From an uncultured archaeon (lineage in GTDB: Archaea > Iainarchaeota > Iainarchaeia > Iainarchaeales > JAAZKV01), in NCBI GenBank assembly GCA_964549775.1, contig CAZJVN010000002.1, positions 1-42,289 of the forward strand: 42,289 bases of DNA, given 5' to 3'. A program made the translations under genes and the position numbers. The stretch's first letter is position 1; each line of letters opens with the position of its first letter. Below, one piece after another: positions 6,794 to 18,993 of this stretch. The notes beneath the pieces are model-generated. The model searched no databases. It had not been told where the DNA came from and was given only the letters and a program-made list of their open reading frames with translations.

Positions 6794-6941
6794 AAAAATT
6801 CCAAATTAAATACAAAAATTAACTAATTTTTTAAAAAAATCTAAACCCCCAAAAGCTTTTTTAACTACAAAATTCTTCTATTAATCAATCTTACTTAGAA
6901 AAAAATGAATTAAAAAAAGATTTTGTAAAGGTGAAAGAAAA

Positions 6942-9900
6942 ATGGTTAATATTTTGTGGTTTAAAGAACTTGACATGAATAATATTCCTCAAGCTGGAGG
7001 AAAAGGAGCTTCACTAGGAGAGATGACACAAAATGGTTTTCCAGTACCTAATGGTTTTGTAATAACTTCAGAAGCTTACTTTAATTTTTTAAAAGAAAAA
7101 GGAATTGAACAACAAATAGTAGAAACTATTGACGCAATTGATGTTGAAAACACAGAACAACTAGAAAGAGTAAGTGAAAAAATTAGAGAACTAATTGAAA
7201 AAACTCCAATGCCTAGTGAAATCAAAGAAGAAATTATAATAAATTATTGGAAACTAAGCGAAGGAAATCCTCAAGGATCACTAGTTGCAGTAAGATCAAG
7301 TGCAACAGCAGAAGATTTACCTGAAGCAAGTTTTGCAGGACAACAAGAAACTTACTTAAATATTCAAGGAAGCGATGATGTAGTTTACTCTGTACAAAAA
7401 TGTTGGGCCTCACTTTTCACAGCAAGAGCGGTGTACTATAGAAAAAAACAAGGGTTTGGAACAGAACAAGTTGGACTTTGCGCAGTAATACAAAAAATGG
7501 TGAGTAGCGAAGTTAGTGGAATAATGTTTACTGCAGACCCTACTGGAGATCTTGAAAAAATAATTATAGAAGCAGGTTATGGGTTAGGAGAAACAGTTGT
7601 TAGTGGAAGTATTACTCCTGATAATTATGTTGTTAGTAAAAAAGAAATGAAACTAGAAAATAAAAAAATAAATAAACAAGAATGGATGCTTGTGAAAGAA
7701 GGAAGAGAAAATGTAAGAGTGAACTTAGGTGAGATGAAAGCAAAGTCGCAAAAATTAATGGATGATAAAATAATTGAACTTGCAGCAATTGGTCAAAAAA
7801 TAGAAGACCACTACAAAAAACCAATGGATATTGAATGGGCAATGGAAAATAATGTTTTATATATTGTACAAGCAAGACCCATAACAACACTTGGGCTTGA
7901 CAAGAAAAACTCTGGACACGAAACTATCCAAGTGAAAGAAACTCCAATACTTGTTGGACTTCCAGCTTCCCCGGGAATAATTACAGGAATTGTAAAAATT
8001 GTTCCAGAAATTGAAGATATCGCAAAAGTAACTACTGGAGACATTTTAGTAACAAAAATGACTTCACCCTCTTGGGTTCCTGTCATGAAAAAAGCGAGCG
8101 GAATAATTACAAACGAAGGAGGAAGAACTTGTTTTGATGGAGAAACAAAGCTTTTGACAAACAAAGGATTTATGACATTCAAACAAATACACGAAGAAGG
8201 ATTTGATGGGTTGAAAATTGTTTCATTTAATAAACAAACAATGAAAACTGAATGGAAACCAGTTATATTTTCAATGAAAAGAACTGCCCCACGAATAACA
8301 ATAAGTATTTCTCAATCAGGCAGAATTAATCACAATATCTTAACACTTACCCCTGATCATAAAATGATTAATTTAAGAAATGCTGAATTAATTGATACTG
8401 AAATACAAGAAATGATTGAAAAAAATGAAATGGGTTGCGTAGCACAATATATCCCTGCACTAACTGAAGCGACAGAGAAAGACAAAAAAATGGCTTATTT
8501 TTTAGGAGGAATAATGACTGACGGGTCAATTTATCAAACAAGAACACATGGGGAAGTTCAATTTATTCAAAAAAATATTCCTGAAAAACAAGAATTTATC
8601 CAATATATGAATGATTGTGCAAAAACCACATTCAATAAAGAATTTGCGATTTCAGAAAAAAAGATTTCAAATGGATTTATACGAGGAAATAAAGTGGAAG
8701 GACAAGCAACAGCTTACAGACTTTATTCAAAACAAATTGCCCAAGAGGTTAATACCGAAGAACAACAAATCACACAAACTTTACTGCAAGGAAACGAGGA
8801 AATATCTTACAATTTTTTGGCAGGAGTTATTGATGGAGATGGAACTTTTTTCAATAACAGAGTTAATATTTATGTTTCAGAAGAGCTTTTATTACAAGGA
8901 GTCATGACTGCTTGTTTAAGAATTGGAACACTACCCCAAGTCACAAAAAACAGAAACATTTTTAATGTCCAAATTGTTGAAAAACTAGAAGAAATATTCA
9001 AGTACACAAAAAGAGTGAAGGGCAATCTAAGAAGCAGAAAAATACAAACAAGATTCTTTTCTGCAAAGCAACTTCAAACAAATAATTCACCTTATAAATT
9101 AAAAGATAGAGCAAAGAGAAATTTGCTTATTTCTGATAAAGAACTAATGTTAATTAAAGATTCAAAAATACAATCAATTTTGAATAGCCGTATTAAAATG
9201 CAGAGAATAACAAAAATTTCTGAGGATACAATGGGAGAAGTTTACAATATTACTGTAGATGATAATCACACATATTTAGTATTTTCAAAAAACCTTACTC
9301 CAATTCTTGCAAATAACTGTCATGCTGCAATTGTTTCTCGTGAACTTGGAATACCCTGTGTGGTTGGAACAGAAAAAGGAACAACAATTCTTACTGACGG
9401 ACAAGAGGTAACAATTGATGGATACAATGGGAATGTTTATGCTGGAAAAGTAGAAATCATTCGAGAAAAAAAAGAGATCAAAGTTCTTGAAGAAAATGAA
9501 ATTGATAAACTAGAAAAAGCAATTAGTATAGAAATAAGCACTAACCCTTTAATTACTGAAGTAGAAAAACAAAAAGCAAAAACAATAATCAAAGAATTTG
9601 CAGGAATAAAATACAAAGAAATGCCGCTTGAAGAAAGAGAAAAAGAAGAAAAAGAATTATTAGAATTACTAAAAGATTTAACAATAAAAGTAAAAGTAAA
9701 CGTTGCACTAGTTGATGCTGCCGAAGCTGCACAAAAAACTAAAGCTGACGGAGTAGGACTACTTAGAGCGGAGCACATGATTACTAGTTCTGGAATGCAC
9801 CCTGCAGAATTTATTAGACAAAATAAAGATACTGAATTAAAAAATATTGTAAAAGAAGCTATTAGAAATGTTGCGAGTAGATTTACTGGACCTGTTTGGT

Positions 9901-10595
9901 TTAGAACATTTGATGCAAGAACTGATGAATACAAAGAATTAATTGGCGGAGATAAGGAACCAAAAGAAGAAAATCCAATGCTAGGTTGGCATGGAATTAG
10001 AAGAGATCTTGATGAACCAAGAATGTTTAAGTGTCAATTAATTGCAATAAAAGAACTTTATGAAGAAGGACAACAAAATGTTGGAGTTATGCTACCTTTT
10101 GTTCAAAGCTTGGAAGAAGTAGTTGTAGCAAAAAGAATAGCAAAAGAAATAGAATTACCAGATGGAGTAGATTTTGGAGTAATGGTAGAAACTCCCGGAG
10201 CAGTTTGGATAATTGATGAAATAATTCCATACATACAATTTGTCTCATTTGGAACAAACGATCTAACACAACTAACACTAGGGCTTGATAGAAATAACGA
10301 GAAAGTACAAAAACAATTCACTGAACTACACCCTGCAATATTAAGACAACTCGAATATGTAATAAAAAAATGTAAAAATGCTGGAGTAGTTACTAGTATT
10401 TGTGGACAAAGTGCATCAAACCCTGAAATGGTGAAAAAACTTGTTTGGTACGGAATAGATTCAGTATCAGCAAACATCGATGCAGTAGAAGAGATAAGAA
10501 ATACAGTGATTATTGAAGAAAAGAAAAAAATATTAGAATACCTAAACAAGTGGCCTTACAATACTAAAAAAAATGAAATAATTGATCTAATCTAA
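6942..10595 (+). CDS. ppsA: Phosphoenolpyruvate synthase (pyruvate, water dikinase), intein-containing precursor
   Basis: 1217-aa ORF. N-terminal ATP-grasp/PPDK_N domain has IPQAGGKGASLGEM and RSSATAEDLPEASFAGQ. The phospho-His motif GGRT/CHAAIVSRELGIP is interrupted by an intein. The C-terminal PEP-utilizer barrel has GVGLLRAEHM, FGTNDLTQ and ICGQSAS. The spliced length would be 821 aa. An aaGGTGAaag SD is present. Confidence 0.93.
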   Translation: MVNILWFKELDMNNIPQAGGKGASLGEMTQNGFPVPNGFVITSEAYFNFLKEKGIEQQIVETIDAIDVENTEQLERVSEKIRELIEKTPMPSEIKEEIIINYWKLSEGNPQGSLVAVRSSATAEDLPEASFAGQQETYLNIQGSDDVVYSVQKCWASLFTARAVYYRKKQGFGTEQVGLCAVIQKMVSSEVSGIMFTADPTGDLEKIIIEAGYGLGETVVSGSITPDNYVVSKKEMKLENKKINKQEWMLVKEGRENVRVNLGEMKAKSQKLMDDKIIELAAIGQKIEDHYKKPMDIEWAMENNVLYIVQARPITTLGLDKKNSGHETIQVKETPILVGLPASPGIITGIVKIVPEIEDIAKVTTGDILVTKMTSPSWVPVMKKASGIITNEGGRTCFDGETKLLTNKGFMTFKQIHEEGFDGLKIVSFNKQTMKTEWKPVIFSMKRTAPRITISISQSGRINHNILTLTPDHKMINLRNAELIDTEIQEMIEKNEMGCVAQYIPALTEATEKDKKMAYFLGGIMTDGSIYQTRTHGEVQFIQKNIPEKQEFIQYMNDCAKTTFNKEFAISEKKISNGFIRGNKVEGQATAYRLYSKQIAQEVNTEEQQITQTLLQGNEEISYNFLAGVIDGDGTFFNNRVNIYVSEELLLQGVMTACLRIGTLPQVTKNRNIFNVQIVEKLEEIFKYTKRVKGNLRSRKIQTRFFSAKQLQTNNSPYKLKDRAKRNLLISDKELMLIKDSKIQSILNSRIKMQRITKISEDTMGEVYNITVDDNHTYLVFSKNLTPILANNCHAAIVSRELGIPCVVGTEKGTTILTDGQEVTIDGYNGNVYAGKVEIIREKKEIKVLEENEIDKLEKAISIEISTNPLITEVEKQKAKTIIKEFAGIKYKEMPLEEREKEEKELLELLKDLTIKVKVNVALVDAAEAAQKTKADGVGLLRAEHMITSSGMHPAEFIRQNKDTELKNIVKEAIRNVASRFTGPVWFRTFDARTDEYKELIGGDKEPKEENPMLGWHGIRRDLDEPRMFKCQLIAIKELYEEGQQNVGVMLPFVQSLEEVVVAKRIAKEIELPDGVDFGVMVETPGAVWIIDEIIPYIQFVSFGTNDLTQLTLGLDRNNEKVQKQFTELHPAILRQLEYVIKKCKNAGVVTSICGQSASNPEMVKKLVWYGIDSVSANIDAVEEIRNTVIIEEKKKILEYLNKWPYNTKKNEIIDLI
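8130..9317 (+). mobile_element. PpsA intein with LAGLIDADG homing-endonuclease domain (396 aa)
   Basis: Cys1 (CFDGETKLL) follows GGRT directly. Block B is LTPDH. LAGLIDADG motifs are YFLGGIMTDGSI and NFLAGVIDGDGTF. Blocks F/G are EVYNITVDDNHTYLV...ILANN, followed by the +1 Cys of CHAAIV. Removal restores GGRTCHAAIVSRELGIP. Confidence 0.9.
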
Positions 10596-10661
10596 AGTCA
10601 CTTTATTTTCATTTTTTTAAGAAAAAGAAGACTTTAATTACTTTCGAACAAATAATTAGTC

Positions 10662-11642
10662 ATGTTACAAATAAATCTAAATAATGCAATTAAGGATTTA
10701 AAAAAAATCAAAGCTAAAAAAGTACTACTACAAATTCCTGAAGGGCTAAAAACAAAAACTGAAAGTATAATTACTGAACTTGAAAAAAACGATTTTAATG
10801 TAATTGTATCAATGGATCCTTGCTTTGGGGCATGCGATGTTAAACCCAAAGAATCAGAAATGATGAACTGTGATGCAGTACTCCACATTGGACACACAAA
10901 GTTTATTGAAAAAAATGATAAAAAAATAATTTATGCTCCGCTAACACAAGAACTAACAAACTTTGAAGAAATAAAAAATAAAATAACACGTTATTTGTTG
11001 GACAACAATTTTTCTTTGATTGGAATTGTCACAACCGCACAATATTTACATTACTTGCCAGAAATAAAAAAACATTTAGAAAAAAACAAAATCAAAGTAA
11101 AAATTACAAACGGAAAAAGAGTAGAAAATGGACAGGTTCTTGGATGTAATTATTCTAGCGCTAATGGTAAAGCAAAAACTATTCTTTATTTTGGGGATGG
11201 ATTGTTTCACCCGCTTGGAATTCATTTTGGTACAAAAAAAGAGGTTATTATTTTTGACCCAATTCTTGGAACAATAAAAACGCTTGATGAAGAAAAAAAT
11301 AATTTCTTACGAAAAAGATTCCTTTTGATTGAGAAAGCAAAAGAAGGAAAGTCTTTTGCAATTCTTGTTTCTACAAAAATTGGACAAAACAGAATTTCAA
11401 CTGCAGAGAAAATAAAAAAAGAACTTGCACACGCTGGAAAAAAAGTTTTTATCTGTTCAATGGATTTTATTTCTGAAGAAAAATTACTCGGACTTGATGT
11501 TGACGTTCTTGTGAACACTGCTTGTCCTCGTCTTTCAATAGATGATTTTGCTTCCTACAAAAAACCCTTAATTAATTACAACGAAGTAAAATATGTTTTA
11601 GGACAAAATTATGAAGATTATAAAACAGAAATAATTTACTAA
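10662..11642 (+). CDS. dph2: Diphthamide biosynthesis protein Dph2 (2-(3-amino-3-carboxypropyl)histidine synthase)
   Basis: 326-aa ORF with LLQIPEGLK. Three Cys contexts (DPCFGACD, VLGCNYS, VNTACPR) lie at the spacing of the archaeal Dph2 Fe-S ligands. LHIGHT is present. There is no SD; a TTTAATTA TATA-like box about 20 nt upstream suggests a leaderless mRNA. Confidence 0.87.
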   Translation: MLQINLNNAIKDLKKIKAKKVLLQIPEGLKTKTESIITELEKNDFNVIVSMDPCFGACDVKPKESEMMNCDAVLHIGHTKFIEKNDKKIIYAPLTQELTNFEEIKNKITRYLLDNNFSLIGIVTTAQYLHYLPEIKKHLEKNKIKVKITNGKRVENGQVLGCNYSSANGKAKTILYFGDGLFHPLGIHFGTKKEVIIFDPILGTIKTLDEEKNNFLRKRFLLIEKAKEGKSFAILVSTKIGQNRISTAEKIKKELAHAGKKVFICSMDFISEEKLLGLDVDVLVNTACPRLSIDDFASYKKPLINYNEVKYVLGQNYEDYKTEIIY

Positions 11643-11667
11643 CTAATACAGACAATTATAAATAATT

Positions 11668-12519
11668 TTATTCTTCTTCGTTTTCTGTTCCCACATTTTC
11701 TGTTCTTACCATTGTTCCTTTAAATTCGGGATTTCCTCGAACAATGGATTTAAAATTTTCTACATCATTTCCTGAAATAAAATAAGATCTAATTTTGCTT
11801 CTTTGCAAAATTGCTGCTGCGTGAGGATCAACAAAAGTGTGTGCCCCTGGTTTTGAAGCTTGAGCTTTAAGAAGGGAAACCATTTTTGTGTGAGTTAATT
11901 CTTTATACATTTTTGCATGTTCTTCTTTTGCTGGATCTGCTGAATAAATTCCATCCACATTACTTACATTAATAAAATCTGCGCCCAAAAGTTCTGCAAT
12001 TATTGCAGCAACCGCGTCAGTAGTTTGTCCAGGAATTGTTCCACCAAAAATCGGGGTTTTTCCTAAAAGTAAAGTTCTCTCCGCCTCTTTAGGGTCAGTT
12101 AGTACTCCCCTCCAAGAATTATCTATTCCATACGTAAAAAATAAAGCGTTTGCTCGGGTTACACTAATTCCAACCTCATCAAGCTCGAAATTATTTGCAC
12201 CCATTGATTTTGCTCCAGCTTGATAAACTCTTGCAACCTTTCCCCCACCAACAACAACAACAAATTGGTTACCCTCTCTAATTAGTTCATTTATTACTTC
12301 ACAAAATTTAGCAATTTCAGGAGCTCTTAATTTTTTGTTAAAAAAGACTGATCCCCCTAAACTTAACACAAAAATCTTTTGATTATTTGATTGAGGATAA
12401 GGATTGTAAGGTTGGTAAACTGATTGTTGAGATTGAGTAGTTGAAGAACTTGTAGTAGAAGAGGTACTTGATTCATTAGCTTTTGGAGTACCATCCCATT
12501 TTTCAAATAAATCAAACAT
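11668..12519 (-). CDS. pyrH: Uridylate (UMP) kinase, archaeal type, with low-complexity N-terminal extension
   Basis: 283-aa ORF. Core segments are VLSLGGSVF, VVVVGGGKVAR and TTDAVAAIIAELLGADFINVSNVDGIYSADP. A strong GAGGTGAG SD precedes ATG 12519. The first ~47 aa are Ser/Thr/Gln/Pro-rich. Confidence 0.9.
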   Translation of the reverse strand: MFDLFEKWDGTPKANESSTSSTTSSSTTQSQQSVYQPYNPYPQSNNQKIFVLSLGGSVFFNKKLRAPEIAKFCEVINELIREGNQFVVVVGGGKVARVYQAGAKSMGANNFELDEVGISVTRANALFFTYGIDNSWRGVLTDPKEAERTLLLGKTPIFGGTIPGQTTDAVAAIIAELLGADFINVSNVDGIYSADPAKEEHAKMYKELTHTKMVSLLKAQASKPGAHTFVDPHAAAILQRSKIRSYFISGNDVENFKSIVRGNPEFKGTMVRTENVGTENEEE

Positions 12520-12620
12520 TTACTCACCTCAAAAATAATTAAATTAAAGCATAATGTTACATTTTTGCTAAAATCAATAGCTTTTATAAAGTAACGAAGC
12601 CGAATTATTATGGAAATTGT

Positions 12621-12631
12621 CCTTTAAATAC
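12621..12631 (+). promoter_or_regulatory. Candidate TATA box for aRF1 (CCTTTAAATAC)
   Basis: CCTTTAAATAC lies about 50 nt upstream of ATG 12680. The identical 11-mer occurs upstream of the S-layer gene (23615-23625). Confidence 0.4.
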
Positions 12632-12679
12632 TTTTTCCAATAAGTAAAAATAATTAAAATAAAATAAAAGTGAAACAAA

Positions 12680-15430
12680 ATGGCTAAAGAATTAAAACTA
12701 AATGAGGTAAGCGAAGCAGAGCTTGCTGTGTTTAAGAAAAAACTAAAAATGCTTGAAAACTTTAAAGGTCGACACACTGAACTTATCACCCAATATATTC
12801 CTCCAGGAACTGATAGAAGTACTGTAATGAACCAATTAAGTGAAGAAATTAATCAAAGCTCAAATATTAAAAGTCCACAAACAAGAAAAAATGTTCAAGG
12901 GGCCTTAAGAAAAATAATTGGGTTCTTAAAAAATATTAACTTCAAATTACCAACTAATGGAATAGTTGTTTTTGCAGGAAATGTATCCGAAACTGATGGA
13001 CGAGCAGATATTCGTTTATTTACTGTTACCCCAGTTATGCCCTTAAAATCAAAACTCTACTGGTGTGATTCTTCATTCCACATTGATTACTTAAAAGAAA
13101 TGATGACTCCTAACGATTTTTACGCAATAATGACGATTGATAAAAACGAAGCAACAATAGCTCAACTAATTGGAAAAAAATATGAAGTAATAGGACACTT
13201 TACTTCGCTAGTTCCTGGAAAAACTAGAGCTGGAGGACAATGTTTAACACCAAACACCCAAATAATCAAATCAACTGGAGAAATAAGTTCTATTGAAAAC
13301 TTAAGGGAAGGGGAGTTAATTAAAGGAGTTGATTTTAAAACAGGAAATACCATAAATACAAAAGTGAAAAAGAAATGGCAAACAGTAAAAAAAACAATTA
13401 CAATAAAAACAAAAAACCCACAATTTTTAATTAATTGTTCCCCAGACCACACTTTTTTTGTATGGGATAATGGAGCAATAATTGAAAAACAAGCAATAGA
13501 ACTAACAAAAAAGGATACTTTATTATTTAACGAGAAAATAAATGTTTCTGAAAAAAAAGAAATAACTTTAACTCAACAATATAACTCATACGCATTAAAA
13601 GTTCCTGCACAAAAAATAATCTTTCAGAGAAGACAAAAAGAAGAATTATCCCAAAAAGAACTGGGAGAATTAATTGAAATGACACAAACTGAAATTTCTT
13701 TATTAGAATTAGGTAAAAGAAATCCTAAAAACGAAACAATAAAGAAAGTCTGTGAAAAATTAAAAATAAATAGAAAAACTTTTATTAAAAAATATTGTGA
13801 AAAAATTGACCAACAAATATTACCACACAAATTAACTAAAGAGTTAGCAGAATTTTTAGGATATTTTGAAGGAGACGGATCATTTGAAAAAGAAAGAATT
13901 TCCTTATACGATTCGGACAAACAAATAATTGAGTACTACACGAATCTAGCAAAAAAATTATTTAACTGCAACTGTAAAATTACTTATAGAAAAAACAAAG
14001 GACATTATCAATCAAGAATTTATGGAAAACAAATAGTTTCATTTTTAAATAATAATTTCCCCGAAATAAATAAAGCCTTAACTTCAAAAGTACCCAAACA
14101 AATAATGCTTTCTGAAAAGAAAATCTTATCGGCTTTTATAAAAGGATTGTTTGATGCTGAAGGATATGTATCAAATAAAAAAGTTGGGTTTGGAATAAAT
14201 AATTACCAACTAGCTCAACAAATCCAAATAGCTTTACTTGAATATGGAATACACCCGTCCTTAATTGAATATGATAATAGAAAAAACATTTATTCAAAAA
14301 ATAAAAGATACACTATAGAAATTGGGAATAAACACTCAATAGTACAATTTTTAGAAAATATTGGATTTAATAGTTATAAAAAAAATAAAAAACTATTACA
14401 ATTAATTAATACAAAAAGTGAAAAAAATAATGTGCGTCAAATCTTAGCAAACGGAGATTATGTAAAAGAAATAATTTTGGAAACAAAAAATCCATTAAAA
14501 GGTTTTCACAAAACAAATATGTTTTTGAATAACAAAAGAAAAATCTCAAAAGAAATTTTTAAACAAGAAATAATAGATAAATCCAATACTCAAGCAAAAG
14601 TAGAATTGAATAAAATATATGAGTATAACCTACTCCCTACAGAAATAATTAAAATTGAATCAAATAATCAACAACCCATGATTGATATTAGTACTGATTG
14701 TGAAAATTTTATAGCAAATGGATTAATTGTTCATAATAGTGCTCAAAGATTTGAAAGATTAAGAGAGGAAGCAACACAAAACTTTTTCAAACTCGCAGGA
14801 GAAAGATTTAACGGATACTTTGAACCACACAAAGAAAAAGTAAAAGGAGTAGTAATTGGCGGACCCGGACAAACAAAAAATTATTTCATGGAAAAAAAAG
14901 TAATACACCACGAACTAGAAAAAAAAGTTCTTGGAGTAATTGACACCTCTTACACTGATGAAGGAGGAATAAGAGAACTTGTACAAAAAAGTAGTGATCT
15001 TCTAAAAGATTCAGAACTTGTAAAAGAAAAAGAAATACTTGACAAATTTATTGGAGAAATAGCAAAAGACGGACTTGCCACTTACGGACAAGCAGAAGTA
15101 GAAAAAATAATTGAAGAAGGAAGAGTAGCGATACTAATTATTTCAGAAGATATTCCTTGGATGGTTTATAGAAAAACATGCGAACACTGCGGAGCTGACA
15201 CCTTTGAAACAGTAAAAGACCATAATAACTTTAGAGAAATTGATCTTAGATGTGGAAATTGTCAATCAAAAGTAGAAGTAACTGAAGAAATAGATTATAT
15301 TGATTGGTTAATGGAAAAAGCAAAAAACACCGGAGCAGATGTGCGAGTAATTAGCACTGAAACAAACGAAGGGAAGAATTTTTATGAAGGATTTGGAGGA
15401 ATAGGAGCAATACTAAGATACAAAATATAA
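12680..15430 (+). CDS. prf1: Peptide chain release factor aRF1, intein-containing precursor
   Basis: 916-aa ORF. Domain 1 has NIKS (SSNIKSPQTRKN) and YxCxxxF (LYWCDSSFH). The domain 2 GGQ motif is split by an intein (TRAGGQ / SAQRFERLREE). Domain 3 has a CxxC...CxxC mini-domain. The spliced length would be 417 aa. Confidence 0.93.
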   Translation: MAKELKLNEVSEAELAVFKKKLKMLENFKGRHTELITQYIPPGTDRSTVMNQLSEEINQSSNIKSPQTRKNVQGALRKIIGFLKNINFKLPTNGIVVFAGNVSETDGRADIRLFTVTPVMPLKSKLYWCDSSFHIDYLKEMMTPNDFYAIMTIDKNEATIAQLIGKKYEVIGHFTSLVPGKTRAGGQCLTPNTQIIKSTGEISSIENLREGELIKGVDFKTGNTINTKVKKKWQTVKKTITIKTKNPQFLINCSPDHTFFVWDNGAIIEKQAIELTKKDTLLFNEKINVSEKKEITLTQQYNSYALKVPAQKIIFQRRQKEELSQKELGELIEMTQTEISLLELGKRNPKNETIKKVCEKLKINRKTFIKKYCEKIDQQILPHKLTKELAEFLGYFEGDGSFEKERISLYDSDKQIIEYYTNLAKKLFNCNCKITYRKNKGHYQSRIYGKQIVSFLNNNFPEINKALTSKVPKQIMLSEKKILSAFIKGLFDAEGYVSNKKVGFGINNYQLAQQIQIALLEYGIHPSLIEYDNRKNIYSKNKRYTIEIGNKHSIVQFLENIGFNSYKKNKKLLQLINTKSEKNNVRQILANGDYVKEIILETKNPLKGFHKTNMFLNNKRKISKEIFKQEIIDKSNTQAKVELNKIYEYNLLPTEIIKIESNNQQPMIDISTDCENFIANGLIVHNSAQRFERLREEATQNFFKLAGERFNGYFEPHKEKVKGVVIGGPGQTKNYFMEKKVIHHELEKKVLGVIDTSYTDEGGIRELVQKSSDLLKDSELVKEKEILDKFIGEIAKDGLATYGQAEVEKIIEEGRVAILIISEDIPWMVYRKTCEHCGADTFETVKDHNNFREIDLRCGNCQSKVEVTEEIDYIDWLMEKAKNTGADVRVISTETNEGKNFYEGFGGIGAILRYKI
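13241..14737 (+). mobile_element. aRF1 intein with XRE-type HTH module and LAGLIDADG homing-endonuclease domain (499 aa)
   Basis: Cys1 (CLTPNTQII) follows GGQ directly. Block B is CSPDHTF. An HTH segment spans 13616-13783. LAGLIDADG motifs are EFLGYFEGDGSF and AFIKGLFDAEGYV. The C-terminus is PMIDISTDCENFIANGLIVHN, followed by the +1 Ser of SAQRF. Confidence 0.9.
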
Positions 15431-15573
15431 TGTGCTTAACCTATTTTGAAAAAACAAATTTAACTAAGAAAAATAATTAAAAATTAATTAAAAGAAGTAA
15501 TAAAAATAAAATCAATAAAAAAACTAAATAACAATAGAACACAATTTGTTGGACAACTATTAAAGGTGAAAAA

Positions 15574-16836
15574 ATGATTGAAAAAAATTTAGAATTTATT
15601 ACTAACTGCCCCGCACTAAAAGGGATAGTAAAACAACGTTACTCTGATTTTGTTGTAGAAGAAGTTACTCGCGAAGGAACTTGTGAAGTAAAAAGATACA
15701 ATAAACCAATGAATGAAAGAAATTTTGAAAAAATGAGTGTTCCAGAAAATACTGAAAATAAAGAACACTTAATTTTAGAGATGGAAAAAATAAATACTGA
15801 CACTGCAACAGCAATAGCGCTCCTTGCAAGAGGAACAAACTCAAGCAAAAAAAGAGTAGGGTACGCTGGATTAAAAGACAAACGAGGAATCACTTGCCAA
15901 AAAATAAGTTTATATCAACCAAATATTCCAAGAGTAGAAAACTTTGGAGTAAAAGGAATAGAACTAAGAAACCCTCACTGGGGAGAAAGAATCGAACTAG
16001 GAGATTTACTTGGAAACCAATTTACAATAACAATTAGAGGAATTAATGAAAGTGAAGAAGAAATAGAAAAGATTGTCCAACAATTTGTGTCAGAGTGTGA
16101 GCTTGGCGTTCCAAACTATTATGGTAACCAACGTTTTGGAGGAAAAAGACAAGTAACTCATAGAGTAGGAAAACTTTTGCTTCAACAAAAATTTAAAGAA
16201 GCAGTTGAACTTTACTTAACAGAAACTTACGAGGAAGAAAAAGTTGATATGAAAAATGCAAGAATCAATTTAGCAAAGTCAAACGATTATGCAAAAGCAT
16301 TACGAGAATTTCCTTTTGAAGCAAGAACAGAAAGAGCAATACTAAACCATTTAGTGAAAAACCCAAACGATTATGCAAACTCTTTTTCAGTACTCCCAAA
16401 AAAAATGAGATATTTATTTACACACGCTTACCAAAGTTATTTGTTTAACAAAATGATAGGAGAGAGAATAAAAAGACTAGGAAAAAATGCACTCCTGCCC
16501 CAAGAGGGAGACATACTTGAAGAGGGAATTCCAACAGCTTTACTCCCAGGTTATGAAAGTAATTTTGCAAGTGGAATACAAGGAGAAATTGAGAAAAAAA
16601 TAATGGAAGAAGAACAAATGAACCCTGAACAATTCAAAGTAGAAGGAATAGCAGAAATATCAAGCCAAGGAGCACGAAAAATAATTTCACTAAAACCCCA
16701 AAATATGTATTTAGAGAAAACTGGAGAGGACGAATTTAATGTTGGAAAAAGATTTGCCACAATAAAATTTTATTTAACAAAAGGAAATTACGCAACAACA
16801 ATTTTACAAGAACTAATTAAAGAAGAAATATTCTAA
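15574..16836 (+). CDS. truD: tRNA pseudouridine synthase TruD/Pus7 family
   Basis: 420-aa ORF with YSDFVVEE, catalytic-Asp segment GYAGLKDKRGIT and NYYGNQRFG. An aaGGTGAaaaa SD is present. Confidence 0.9.
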   Translation: MIEKNLEFITNCPALKGIVKQRYSDFVVEEVTREGTCEVKRYNKPMNERNFEKMSVPENTENKEHLILEMEKINTDTATAIALLARGTNSSKKRVGYAGLKDKRGITCQKISLYQPNIPRVENFGVKGIELRNPHWGERIELGDLLGNQFTITIRGINESEEEIEKIVQQFVSECELGVPNYYGNQRFGGKRQVTHRVGKLLLQQKFKEAVELYLTETYEEEKVDMKNARINLAKSNDYAKALREFPFEARTERAILNHLVKNPNDYANSFSVLPKKMRYLFTHAYQSYLFNKMIGERIKRLGKNALLPQEGDILEEGIPTALLPGYESNFASGIQGEIEKKIMEEEQMNPEQFKVEGIAEISSQGARKIISLKPQNMYLEKTGEDEFNVGKRFATIKFYLTKGNYATTILQELIKEEIF

Positions 16837-16891
16837 TTTTGGAAATAATCTAATTTTACAAATAGTCTAATTTTGTAAAAAAAGAATTTTT

Positions 16892-17902
16892 TTAAGCAAT
16901 GTAAAAATTCATAAATAATGTTGCCCAAATTACACAATTAATTAAAACAATTAGCCAAATTAATAAAACTATTTGCCACTCTTTTAGTGGACCAAATATT
17001 TTCATTATTAGTTTTGCAAAATCATACCTTGTTCTCTTATCAGGATAAATTGGAATTGAAAGCTTTCCATTTTTTAGTAAAGTATAGGGTCTGAATTTTC
17101 TTTGAGTGGCATCGTCTCTATTTGTTAACATCTTTAGTAAAAAGAAATCAATCATGTGCGGGATAAAAAGTAAAAATATGAAAACAACAATCAAAATATT
17201 TTGAGAATATAAGGCAAATCCTGCAATACTTGATCCGATTAATAAAGTTCCAGAATCCCCTGGGAATGCTCGTGCAGGAAACCTGTTAAAAACAAGTAAA
17301 CCTAAAATGATTGCGTTAAGTGAAAAAAACAAAAAACTTAACTCTTGAGAAATTTGAATTATTGTAAGAGTAATTATTGAAGTGATAATAAAACTTGTTC
17401 CAATAGTCCAACCGTTTAACCCTTCAAAAGTATTACTAAAACTAGCAACTCCTGCAAAAAATAATGCTAAAAGAATTACTAACAAAATTCCTGCAAAATC
17501 AAATAAACCTAGCGGAGTAAACAAAATGTATCCCACTAAAAGTGAAACAAACGCTATGGGCACAGCTCTTTGTTTCCAACTTAAAGGTTTTGAAAGGAAC
17601 TTGTTTTTTGAGTCATCAATAAAACCAATTAAAGCAAAAACACTAACTGCAAAAGCAACTATCACTAATTTGAATTCAAATCCAAAAAAGAAAAAAAATA
17701 ATGCAATAATTAACCAAAACGGAATTATTAATGCAATTCCAACACTCTCAGCAACTAATGGCTCCCCCAATTTGTTAATATCTTTTCCAACAATTTTTTT
17801 TGAAAAGTTTCGCTTAATTATTATAAAAACAAAAATAGTTGACAAAAGGAATAAAAAAACGGGTGTTAGTGTTAGTAAATCTATTTGTAAAAAATCAAAC
17901 AT
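16892..17902 (-). CDS. Glycosyltransferase family 4 (MraY/WecA/AglH-like sugar-phosphate:polyprenyl-phosphate transferase)
   Basis: Polytopic membrane ORF with GFIDDS, NTFEGLNGWTIG and FPARAFPGDSGTLLIGS. The track ORF starts with GTG at 17911. ATG 17902 sits behind aaGGTGAg and is the likelier start. Confidence 0.8.
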   Translation of the reverse strand: MFDFLQIDLLTLTPVFLFLLSTIFVFIIIKRNFSKKIVGKDINKLGEPLVAESVGIALIIPFWLIIALFFFFFGFEFKLVIVAFAVSVFALIGFIDDSKNKFLSKPLSWKQRAVPIAFVSLLVGYILFTPLGLFDFAGILLVILLALFFAGVASFSNTFEGLNGWTIGTSFIITSIITLTIIQISQELSFLFFSLNAIILGLLVFNRFPARAFPGDSGTLLIGSSIAGFALYSQNILIVVFIFLLFIPHMIDFFLLKMLTNRDDATQRKFRPYTLLKNGKLSIPIYPDKRTRYDFAKLIMKIFGPLKEWQIVLLIWLIVLINCVIWATLFMNFYIA

Positions 17903-18024
17903 TTTTAGCACTCACCTTTTATCTATTTGATAATTAATGAATAAAAAAAGAGTTTATAATCCTAATCAGTACAAAAATAAAATAAAATCATTGATCTAAT
18001 TTAAATTATTTCATTTAATTCAAA

Positions 18025-18993
18025 TTATTTTTTTATTTTAATTAAAGAAACAAATAAACTTACAATTGTTGGAATAATTAATCTAACAACTGCGAAGAGT
18101 ACGAGTATTGCTGCAATTTGTGGAACGCTTAAAGAAATTTTTGAGAATTCTGGTAATGCTAAAAAAATAAAACCTGCTGCTTCAACAAGCCCAATTCCTC
18201 TTGGGATTATTGGTGTTCTTTCAAGAACAGAAATTATTATGAACAAAAACATTAGTGGGAAAATTTCTATGAAAACATTTAATGCGAAAAAACAAAAAAG
18301 TAGTGCAACAAATTCTAGTAACAAAGATATTCCTGATAACATTAGAACTATTAAGAAGTTTCTTCTTGGAACAACTTGCAAATAATGAGAGTACTCATAA
18401 AAGTATTTTTTTAGTATTAAAAATGGGTGAAATATTTTTCCAAGTTCTCCAAAGATTCCTGAAATAAGTAACCCTATTTTTTTATTTAAGGGTAATAAAA
18501 ATAATGCTGCGGCTAGAATTATTACTGAAAAACCAGAGAGTAAACCAAATAAAACTACTAAGGATAATTGTGTTTCCCATAAAACTATCCAAATAACTAT
18601 GCTTGAGAGGAGGGCTAGCATGAAGAATTTTAGTCCTTTAACAACCATTGCTGCAGAAATTGATTGAGAGTAAGACACTCCAAAATATTCTTTAGCCTTA
18701 ATTGATCTTAGAGCTTCTGAACCAACTTGTACAGGAGTTAATGCTCCATACACGCAAGAGAAACCTAACAGAATGGACTTGGATAAAGACACTTTCTTAT
18801 TGTTTTTGAGTAGTAAAGCCCATGGAATAATCCAAAAAACAATAGATGTTAAGAAAAAAAGCACTGCTAACGCAAAGAAATACGGGTTCGCTTGCATTAT
18901 GACAGGTAAAGCTCCTGAAAGGCTAGTCACAATACTAAACCCTACAAAAACTAGTATTAAAAGAATAAGACTGTACTTCAAATATTTTTCCAT
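18025..18993 (-). CDS. Polytopic membrane protein, flippase-like / LPG-synthase-TM (UPF0104)-like
   Basis: 322-aa ORF with about 8 hydrophobic helices and short basic loops. The architecture matches proteins that often neighbour archaeal glycosyltransferases. The family call rests on overall pattern only. Confidence 0.45.
   Translation of the reverse strand: MEKYLKYSLILLILVFVGFSIVTSLSGALPVIMQANPYFFALAVLFFLTSIVFWIIPWALLLKNNKKVSLSKSILLGFSCVYGALTPVQVGSEALRSIKAKEYFGVSYSQSISAAMVVKGLKFFMLALLSSIVIWIVLWETQLSLVVLFGLLSGFSVIILAAALFLLPLNKKIGLLISGIFGELGKIFHPFLILKKYFYEYSHYLQVVPRRNFLIVLMLSGISLLLEFVALLFCFFALNVFIEIFPLMFLFIIISVLERTPIIPRGIGLVEAAGFIFLALPEFSKISLSVPQIAAILVLFAVVRLIIPTIVSLFVSLIKIKK

Follow-up and report, generated by a model that had tools for sequence, protein, structure and literature searches.

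We identified an intein in the gene for the archaeal class-1 release factor (aRF1) of an uncultured archaeon of the Iainarchaeota. The gene lies on a stretch of DNA of 42,289 nucleotides (GenBank assembly GCA_964549775.1, contig CAZJVN010000002.1, positions 1 to 42,289 of the forward strand), which was analyzed as a whole and is hereafter called the window; all features described below are on its plus strand. The insert, which is 499 residues long, interrupts the catalytic loop of the release factor directly behind the GGQ tripeptide. The most probable reading (at roughly 85%) is that it represents a class-1 intein with its own LAGLIDADG endonuclease in the aRF1 of a low-GC DPANN archaeon of the Iainarchaeota/Diapherotrites type (i.e., a selfish element that is horizontally mobile among DPANN archaea).

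Precursor gene and insertion point

The open reading frame (ORF) of the aRF1 precursor (positions 12680 to 15430) encodes 916 amino acids followed by a stop codon. It scored 433 bits against TIGR03676, the aRF1 equivalog model (cutoff, 234.7 bits), and matched all three Pfam domains of the host family (i.e., eRF1_1, eRF1_2, and eRF1_3). The N-extein (positions 12680 to 13240; amino acids 1 to 187) comprises aRF1 domain N, including the NIKS and YWCDSSF motifs, and the first part of domain M. It ends in RAGGQ, with the GGQ tripeptide at residues 185 to 187 of the precursor and Gln187 as the -1 residue of the intein. The intein itself (positions 13241 to 14737) is an in-frame insertion of 1,497 nucleotides relative to the empty alleles described below. 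It opens at nucleotide 13241 with Cys1 (ORF residue 188) of the sequence CLTPNTQIIK and closes with FIANGLIVHN, of which the terminal His-Asn corresponds to ORF residues 685 and 686 and ends at nucleotide 14737. The C-extein (positions 14738 to 15430) starts with the +1 Ser (ORF residue 687) of SAQRFERLREE and supplies the remainder of domain M as well as domain C. The GC content is 24.7% in the insert and 33.0% in the exteins.

In silico removal of the intein yielded an aRF1 of 417 residues, in which NIKS is located at residue 62, YWCDSSF at residue 127, and GGQ at residue 185, the last within a continuous GGQSAQRF sequence. This spliced protein matched Halobacterium aRF1 from end to end (4AF1; E value, 1e-78) and also matched human eRF1 (1DT9; E value, 7e-59). 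With its three domains, its NIKS, YxCxxxF, and GGQ motifs, and an equivalog score above the threshold, the host protein is a class-1 release factor. These data bear out a preliminary description of the window, which had proposed an intein of 499 residues with the same boundaries in a 916-residue ORF, the restoration of a 417-residue aRF1 with NIKS, YxCxxxF, and GGQSAQRF upon its deletion, and the presence of Cys1, an SPDH block B, two LAGLIDADG motifs, a terminal His-Asn, and a +1 Ser. In checks that it had proposed, Hint and LAGLIDADG models passed their curated cutoffs on the insert, and both empty and occupied GGQ sites were found in related genomes. Its statement that the intein splits the GGQ motif needs a small correction in that the tripeptide is intact; the intein lies between the Gln and the conserved Ser of GGQS.

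Splicing domain and predicted splicing pathway

The N-terminal lobe of the Hint domain (positions 13241 to 13579; ORF residues 188 to approximately 300) was delineated by TIGR01445, by the beta-strands of a structural model, and by sequence conservation. It contains block A with Cys1 and block B, which reads Ser-Pro-Asp-His at intein residues 67 to 70, with Ser replacing the Thr of T-x-x-H. The C-terminal lobe (positions 14630 to 14737; ORF residues 651 to 686) contains block F (MIDIS...NFIANG) and block G (LIVHN). The Pfam model Intein_splicing (PF14890) matched the insert with 52 bits (cutoff, 35.8), and TIGR01445 (intein_Nterm) matched intein residues 1 to 74 with 29.9 bits (cutoff, 24.5); the score of TIGR01443, which describes the C-terminal splicing region, was 14.9, slightly below the cutoff of 15.6. 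The -1 Gln and Cys1 are invariant in the homologs that cover the site (118/118). All of the 120 homologs (120/120) have the terminal His498 and Asn499, Asp482 of block F, and the +1 Ser, and in block B the Ser and the His are conserved in 118 and 119 of these 120 sequences, respectively. Judged by its Hint profile, Cys1, block B, blocks F and G, the +1 Ser, and the existence of empty alleles, the insert is a canonical class-1 intein. Block B is directly preceded by another cysteine, Cys66 (positions 13436 to 13438; CSPDH), which is also present in the closest relatives (P0002 to P0009); the family consensus at this position is Ser.

An AlphaFold2 (AF2) model of the whole precursor, built from an alignment of 75 sequences (mean pLDDT, 90.9), gave the following order of domains: aRF1 domains N and M up to residue 187, the N-terminal Hint lobe, a five-helix domain, the LAGLIDADG domain, a four-helix domain, the C-terminal Hint lobe, and the remaining part of aRF1. 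When this model was compared with the PDB using Foldseek, it matched the TliVMA intein (7QSS; E value, 1.5e-23; target-normalized TM-score, 0.75), as well as aRF1 (4AF1; E value, 2e-23), PI-PfuI, PI-TkoII, and PI-SceI. By sequence, the nearest solved structures are those of archaeal V-ATPase inteins (7QSU, 7QSS, and 7QST; E values, 4e-15 to 8e-11) and PI-PfuI (1DQ3).

The precursor has every residue on which the standard class-1 pathway with its four steps depends, and we infer the splicing chemistry from the family. The 916-residue precursor would be translated first, and Cys188 would then rearrange the bond between Gln187 and itself by an N-S acyl shift. The hydroxyl group of the +1 Ser687 would attack the thioester, Asn686 would cyclize with the aid of His685 to release the intein, and an O-N shift would restore the GGQ-S peptide bond, giving the normal 417-residue aRF1. 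Before splicing, an insert of 57 kDa would be located at the tip of domain M, which has to reach the peptidyl-transferase center. Because the GGQ loop must enter this center, the unspliced precursor should be inactive in peptide release, and the same expectation in the preliminary description seems reasonable. No second aRF1 copy was found within the 42-kb window; if the gene is the sole aRF1 in the genome, translation termination would depend on splicing.

Endonuclease, helix-turn-helix, and accessory domains

The LAGLIDADG homing endonuclease domain (positions 13838 to 14413; ORF residues 387 to 578) matched LAGLIDADG_3 (PF14528) with 82 bits (cutoff, 22.5). It contains two motifs, namely, GYFEGDGS (positions 13859 to 13882), with the catalytic Asp212, and KGLFDAEGYV (positions 14141 to 14170), with the catalytic Glu307; these acids are conserved in 118/120 and 115/120 homologs, respectively. 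The endonuclease is separated from the N-terminal Hint lobe by an XRE/Cro-C1-type helix-turn-helix (HTH) domain (positions 13601 to 13795; ORF residues 308 to 372), which the preliminary description had overlooked. The Pfam model HTH_3 (PF01381) matched this domain with 37 bits (cutoff, 23), its sequence resembles that of the controller protein C.BclI (2B5A; E value, 1e-3), and the AF2 model contains five helices in this region, with an HTH core that is conserved across the family. HTH_3 is kept in approximately 110 of 119 members of the aRF1-intein family. The eight listed members without an HTH form five or more groups, each with nearest neighbors that have one, suggesting that the domain has been lost repeatedly. 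A four-helix accessory domain (positions 14453 to 14620; ORF residues 592 to 647), recognized by its helices in the AF2 model, follows the endonuclease and precedes the C-terminal Hint lobe.

Endonuclease-bearing inteins are composed of a Hint domain, an endonuclease, and an accessory domain (Beyer et al., PMC8966425). In the structures of that study, the accessory domain comes after the endonuclease and before the C-terminal Hint lobe, and the link from the N-terminal Hint lobe to the endonuclease is an unstructured loop of 28 to 32 residues. Accessory domains modulate DNA recognition, and two of those described are HTH-like and influence target choice (PMC8966425). The aRF1 intein has a helical domain at the usual C-side position plus an XRE HTH within the N-side link. 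The HTH is most economically read as an auxiliary DNA-binding module of the endonuclease, and both it and the helical domain probably provide additional contacts to DNA.

Relatives of this intein were also observed in other hosts. P0306 (dCMP deaminase), P0292 (metallo-beta-lactamase-fold protein), P0321, and P0304 align over the full 499 residues at 26 to 30% identity and likewise contain HTH_3, HTH_26, or HTH_31 N-terminal to the endonuclease; their hosts and insertion sites differ from those of the aRF1 intein. P0306 has an additional, separate N-terminal LAGLIDADG_2 domain. These four proteins belong to a set of eight distant full-length relatives that also includes P0318, P0369, P0309, and P0313. 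Several of the eight have an N-side HTH, and the hosts among them are dCMP deaminase, metallo-beta-lactamase-fold, RadA, DHH/RecJ-like, and glutamine amidotransferase proteins. At the GGQ site itself, P0272 and P0274 (971 to 974 residues) carry larger inteins of approximately 555 residues with extra helical sequence after the endonuclease, which by eye resembles a second HTH (e.g., ...LRITPTEIANELKISTGPIYRLE...).

Empty alleles, presumed homing site, and probable mobility

A search with the spliced exteins revealed that the closest aRF1s are all intein free and 408 to 431 residues long (P0121 at 96% identity, P0122 at 94%, and approximately 40 more at 75 to 80%). The closest intein-bearing aRF1s show 65 to 68% identity in the exteins and 56 to 60% in the intein. 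Among the GTDB species representatives, all of the 11 closest loci (11/11) are without the intein (best-segment identity, 67 to 96%); they are named Candidatus Iainarchaeum, Candidatus Forterrea, or "archaeon." After removal of nucleotides 13241 to 14737, the window aligns without gaps to two of the empty loci (L001 and L002) across ...GCTGGAGGACAA/AGTGCTCAAAGATTT..., where the slash marks the insertion point. A third locus (L003) is colinear with window positions 7761 to 18390 at 81 to 86% identity, save for two clean gaps that correspond to the aRF1 intein and to an intein in the phosphoenolpyruvate (PEP) synthase gene described below. Gene order is preserved in all three loci. The clean gaps in the colinear L003 indicate that the insertion was precise.

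The left half (positions 13205 to 13240) and the right half (positions 14738 to 14773) of the presumed homing site were defined by alignment of the empty alleles L001 to L013. When joined, the two halves (72 bp) reproduce the empty allele ...GCTGGAGGACAA/AGTGCTCAAAGATTT..., and the empty site in L001 reads TCACTAGTTCCTGGAAAAACTAGAGCTGGTGGACAA/AGTGCACAAAGATTTGAAAGACTACGAGAAGAAGCA. Among the empty alleles, the protein sequence encoded by the target region does not vary, and the differences between them are mostly synonymous.

Pairwise identities of inteins and exteins are almost uncoupled among 117 intein-bearing aRF1s (Spearman coefficient, 0.23). P0071 and P0079, for example, are 67% identical in the exteins and 94% identical in the intein, and pairs of this kind speak for horizontal transfer among hosts that have diverged. 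The empty alleles of the nearest relatives, together with the uncoupled identities, point to active homing and horizontal transfer, and the sporadic distribution of the intein across related genomes is consistent with homing. Most likely, the excised intein would cleave the GGQ/S-coding sequence of aRF1 alleles that lack an intein, into which it would then be copied by repair.

Several points weigh against an active, mobile element. The nearest intein is only about 60% identical, so that no recent donor was identified, and empty and occupied alleles were not seen within one population. The HTH is N-terminal to the endonuclease, unlike the characterized accessory domains, and its role in target recognition is one that we infer. 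For every member of the family, splicing and DNA cleavage are predictions based on sequence and model.

Alternative explanations

Another reading, which we consider unlikely, is an intein that is fixed and decaying (i.e., a passenger with an inactive endonuclease that is inherited only vertically and must still splice). In its favor, no near-identical copy of the intein was found elsewhere, the best match being about 60% identical, and the GC content at third codon positions is similar in the intein (16%) and the extein (19%), suggesting that the insertion is not very recent. However, this intein and >95% of its homologs have intact catalytic acids and two intact LAGLIDADG motifs, the sisters at 94 to 96% extein identity have empty sites, and intein and extein are strongly incongruent across the family.

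We find it rather improbable that the intein is a conditional-splicing switch, in which redox state, temperature, or another signal acts after translation to tune how much active aRF1 is available and, with it, termination. Such a switch would suit the insertion site, a catalytic loop in a protein that is probably the sole release factor, Cys1 and Cys66 near block B could in principle form a disulfide, and conditional splicing is reported for other archaeal inteins (e.g., RadA). Nevertheless, the closest relatives are without the intein, which is hence dispensable, and Cys66 is not conserved in the family. The conserved endonuclease and horizontal movement explain the persistence of the intein without a benefit to the host, and the pattern found, intein-free closest relatives and an intact endonuclease, is not the retention pattern of a conditional intein. 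The preliminary description had raised the possibility of a post-translational control point for termination. Our data lend this suggestion no support; empty-site relatives, conserved catalytic residues, and uncoupled identities are the signature of selfish homing and not of a retained regulator. It is similarly very doubtful that stress (i.e., Cys1 oxidation or a temperature shift) would cause the precursor to accumulate as a dead factor of the eRF1(AAQ) type and to stall or slow termination globally, with the excised XRE-HTH intein perhaps acting as a regulator. In that scenario, the precursor would retain the stop-codon-reading domain N, and its catalytic loop would be blocked.

A second function of the excised intein as a sequence-specific DNA-binding regulator, comparable to WhiA, appears highly improbable. 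A bona fide HTH_3 domain is present in most of the family, and a precedent exists in WhiA-type proteins, in which a protein with LAGLIDADG and HTH domains can reportedly be a transcription factor (PMC3240954 and PMC11701221). However, the family has undergone at least five independent losses of the HTH and, in contrast to WhiA, keeps the catalytic residues, and HTH-like accessory domains of inteins have already been tied to the target choice of the endonuclease (PMC8966425).

An assembly chimera or a misjoined contig as the source of the long ORF, to which nothing beyond the lower GC content of the insert (24.7% versus 33.0%) points, can be rejected with near certainty, because the reading frame is preserved exactly and the intein junctions are perfect, both flanks are colinear with L003, in which a clean gap in frame takes the place of the intein, and the same architecture recurs in >118 independent assemblies drawn from several sources.

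Distribution of the GGQ-site intein

When the precursor served as the query, 120 clusters at 90% identity were listed, and 291 had an E value of ≤1e-10. The 120 listed clusters are 811 to 921 residues long, with the exception of one 611-residue fragment. All contain eRF1 and LAGLIDADG Pfam domains, nearly all contain the intein-splicing domain, and most contain HTH_3. An identical GGQ/C...HN/S site is shared by >118 public protein clusters (90% identity), and the site is the same in every homolog. An exhaustive search with the intein alone against 1.8 billion representatives at 50% identity led to 3,265 relatives, of which the top 55 or so show the aRF1 geometry (i.e., an intein start near residue 175 to 190). 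The source names of the intein-bearing aRF1s include Diapherotrites/Iainarchaeota, Aenigmarchaeota, Woesearchaeota, Nanoarchaeota, Micrarchaeota, and Nanohaloarchaea. Going by these names, the GGQ-site aRF1 intein spans most of DPANN, with at least five lineages represented.

Some of these clusters are labeled "eRF1/intein/homing endonuclease" in the automatic annotation of JGI. The NCBI names for other intein-bearing aRF1s are "hypothetical protein," "helix-turn-helix domain-containing protein," and "LAGLIDADG family homing endonuclease"; the misnamed aRF1s are P0062 to P0064, P0069, P0073, P0080, P0082, P0092, P0093, P0103, P0105, P0109, P0116, P0119, P0264, P0270, P0280, and P0307.

A protein of 1,452 residues from a Logan assembly (P0287; outside the window) is an aRF1 with two inteins, one at GGQ/C...HN/S and the other inside the stop-codon-recognition motif YxCxxxF (YLYR/CVAPDS...FMVHN/CDDHF), indicating that aRF1 has at least two insertion sites. 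Domain C of the aRF1 in the window contains a CxxC...CxxC insert (CEHCG...CGNC; approximately positions 15179 to 15319; precursor residues 834 to 880) that resembles a small zinc ribbon and weakly matches NF041197. The C-extein is about 40 residues shorter in many of the shorter intein-bearing aRF1s, which may correspond to the absence of this insert.

A scan of IMG/VR with the precursor alignment returned only intein-free eRF1 genes of giant viruses, in which tblastn detected no intein homology; matches that seemed to end at residue 187 were dismissed as a numbering artifact of the precursor query. A viral scan with the intein alone, which has low sensitivity, gave no match.

Comparison with known inteins

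The VMA-b inteins TliVMA and PhoVMA of archaeal V-ATPase subunit A (7QSS, 7QSU, and 7QST; PMC8966425) are the best matches to the aRF1 intein in both sequence and structure, at approximately 15 to 17% identity in the structural alignment. In both kinds of intein, a LAGLIDADG endonuclease with two motifs is nested in a class-1 Hint domain and followed by a helical accessory domain before the C-terminal Hint lobe, and the host is in each case an essential protein that is interrupted in a catalytic loop. They differ in host and site (GGQ/S of aRF1 versus the ATPase P-loop) and in the N-side link, which holds an XRE HTH_3 domain recognizable by sequence in the aRF1 intein and an unstructured loop of 28 to 32 residues in the VMA inteins (PMC8966425).

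PI-PfuI (1DQ3), PI-TkoII (2CW7), and PI-SceI (1VDE and 1LWS) also share the Hint and LAGLIDADG domains, extra DNA-contacting modules, and a homing life cycle with the aRF1 intein. Their hosts are other proteins than aRF1, namely, VMA1 for PI-SceI, a ribonucleotide reductase for PI-PfuI, and a DNA polymerase for PI-TkoII. The extra DNA-binding modules are also of another kind; PI-SceI recognizes DNA through a region that interrupts its Hint domain and does not belong to the XRE HTH type (PMC8966425).

Inteins also occur in other translation factors, namely, archaeal aIF2/IF2, for which the 2016 survey of archaeal inteins lists 15 cases (PMC4760082). Like the aRF1 intein, they reside in a core archaeal translation factor; aIF2/IF2 proteins are P-loop GTPases of initiation, whereas aRF1 is a release factor.

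A second intein in the window

The window contains another intein of 396 residues (positions 8130 to 9317) in the PEP synthase ORF (positions 6942 to 10595), which is inserted directly before the catalytic His motif (GGRT/CFDGE...ILANN/CHAAIVSRE). This intein has a LAGLIDADG domain and no HTH_3. The two inteins of the window are distantly related (27% identity over the endonuclease domain). They are alike in being located at a catalytic motif (GGRT/CHAAIV in PEP synthase) and in having no counterpart in the close relative L003, where the PEP synthase site reads GGRTCHAAIVSRE. They differ at the C terminus, where the PEP synthase intein has Asn-Asn (i.e., the penultimate His is missing) and a +1 Cys, in contrast to the His-Asn and +1 Ser of the aRF1 intein. 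The PEP synthase site is a classical insertion site that has long been catalogued. A Candidatus Iainarchaeum metagenome-assembled genome (MAG), represented by L004, is apparently without the whole PEP synthase gene (L004 positions 635 to 697 versus window positions 6805 to 10614); its flanks are otherwise colinear with the window.

Novelty and implications

Our literature search, which did not extend to InBase and the supplements of two intein surveys, found no description of a natural aRF1/eRF1 intein; most of the matching papers dealt with genetic code expansion. No release-factor intein is mentioned in the texts on BsV, ARMAN/Mia14, and Anaeramoeba, in that of a preprint on divergent proteins, or in the main text of Novikova 2016. 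In the NCBIfam scan, the intein-containing exception models that matched were for GyrA and radical-SAM proteins, and none was for an aRF1 with an intein. The GGQ-site intein of aRF1 appears to be undescribed with respect to its host and its site though abundant in public data, and it appears mechanistically conventional. The preliminary description had suspected an uncatalogued allele. The element does appear undescribed, but it is not rare, with >118 clusters at 90% identity and approximately 55 at 50% identity across most DPANN phyla.

Few inteins are known from the core translation machinery according to the 2016 survey, the main text of which does not mention release factors (PMC4760082). 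With the present intein, a class-1 release factor, occupied at its catalytic loop, joins the intein hosts within a machinery that this survey considers intein poor. Because of the misnaming of intein-bearing aRF1s, MAG annotation and phylogenomics can miss an essential single-copy gene that is in common use. The family also represents a resource for engineering, in that it offers a Cys1/Ser+1 intein with Gln at position -1 and LAGLIDADG endonucleases with a modular XRE-HTH. If the interrupted gene is the only aRF1 in its genome, the archaeon would provide a clean natural system for the question of splicing-limited termination. Given its spread over at least five DPANN lineages and the incongruence of inteins and exteins, the GGQ-site allele could mark gene flow among these episymbiotic archaea.

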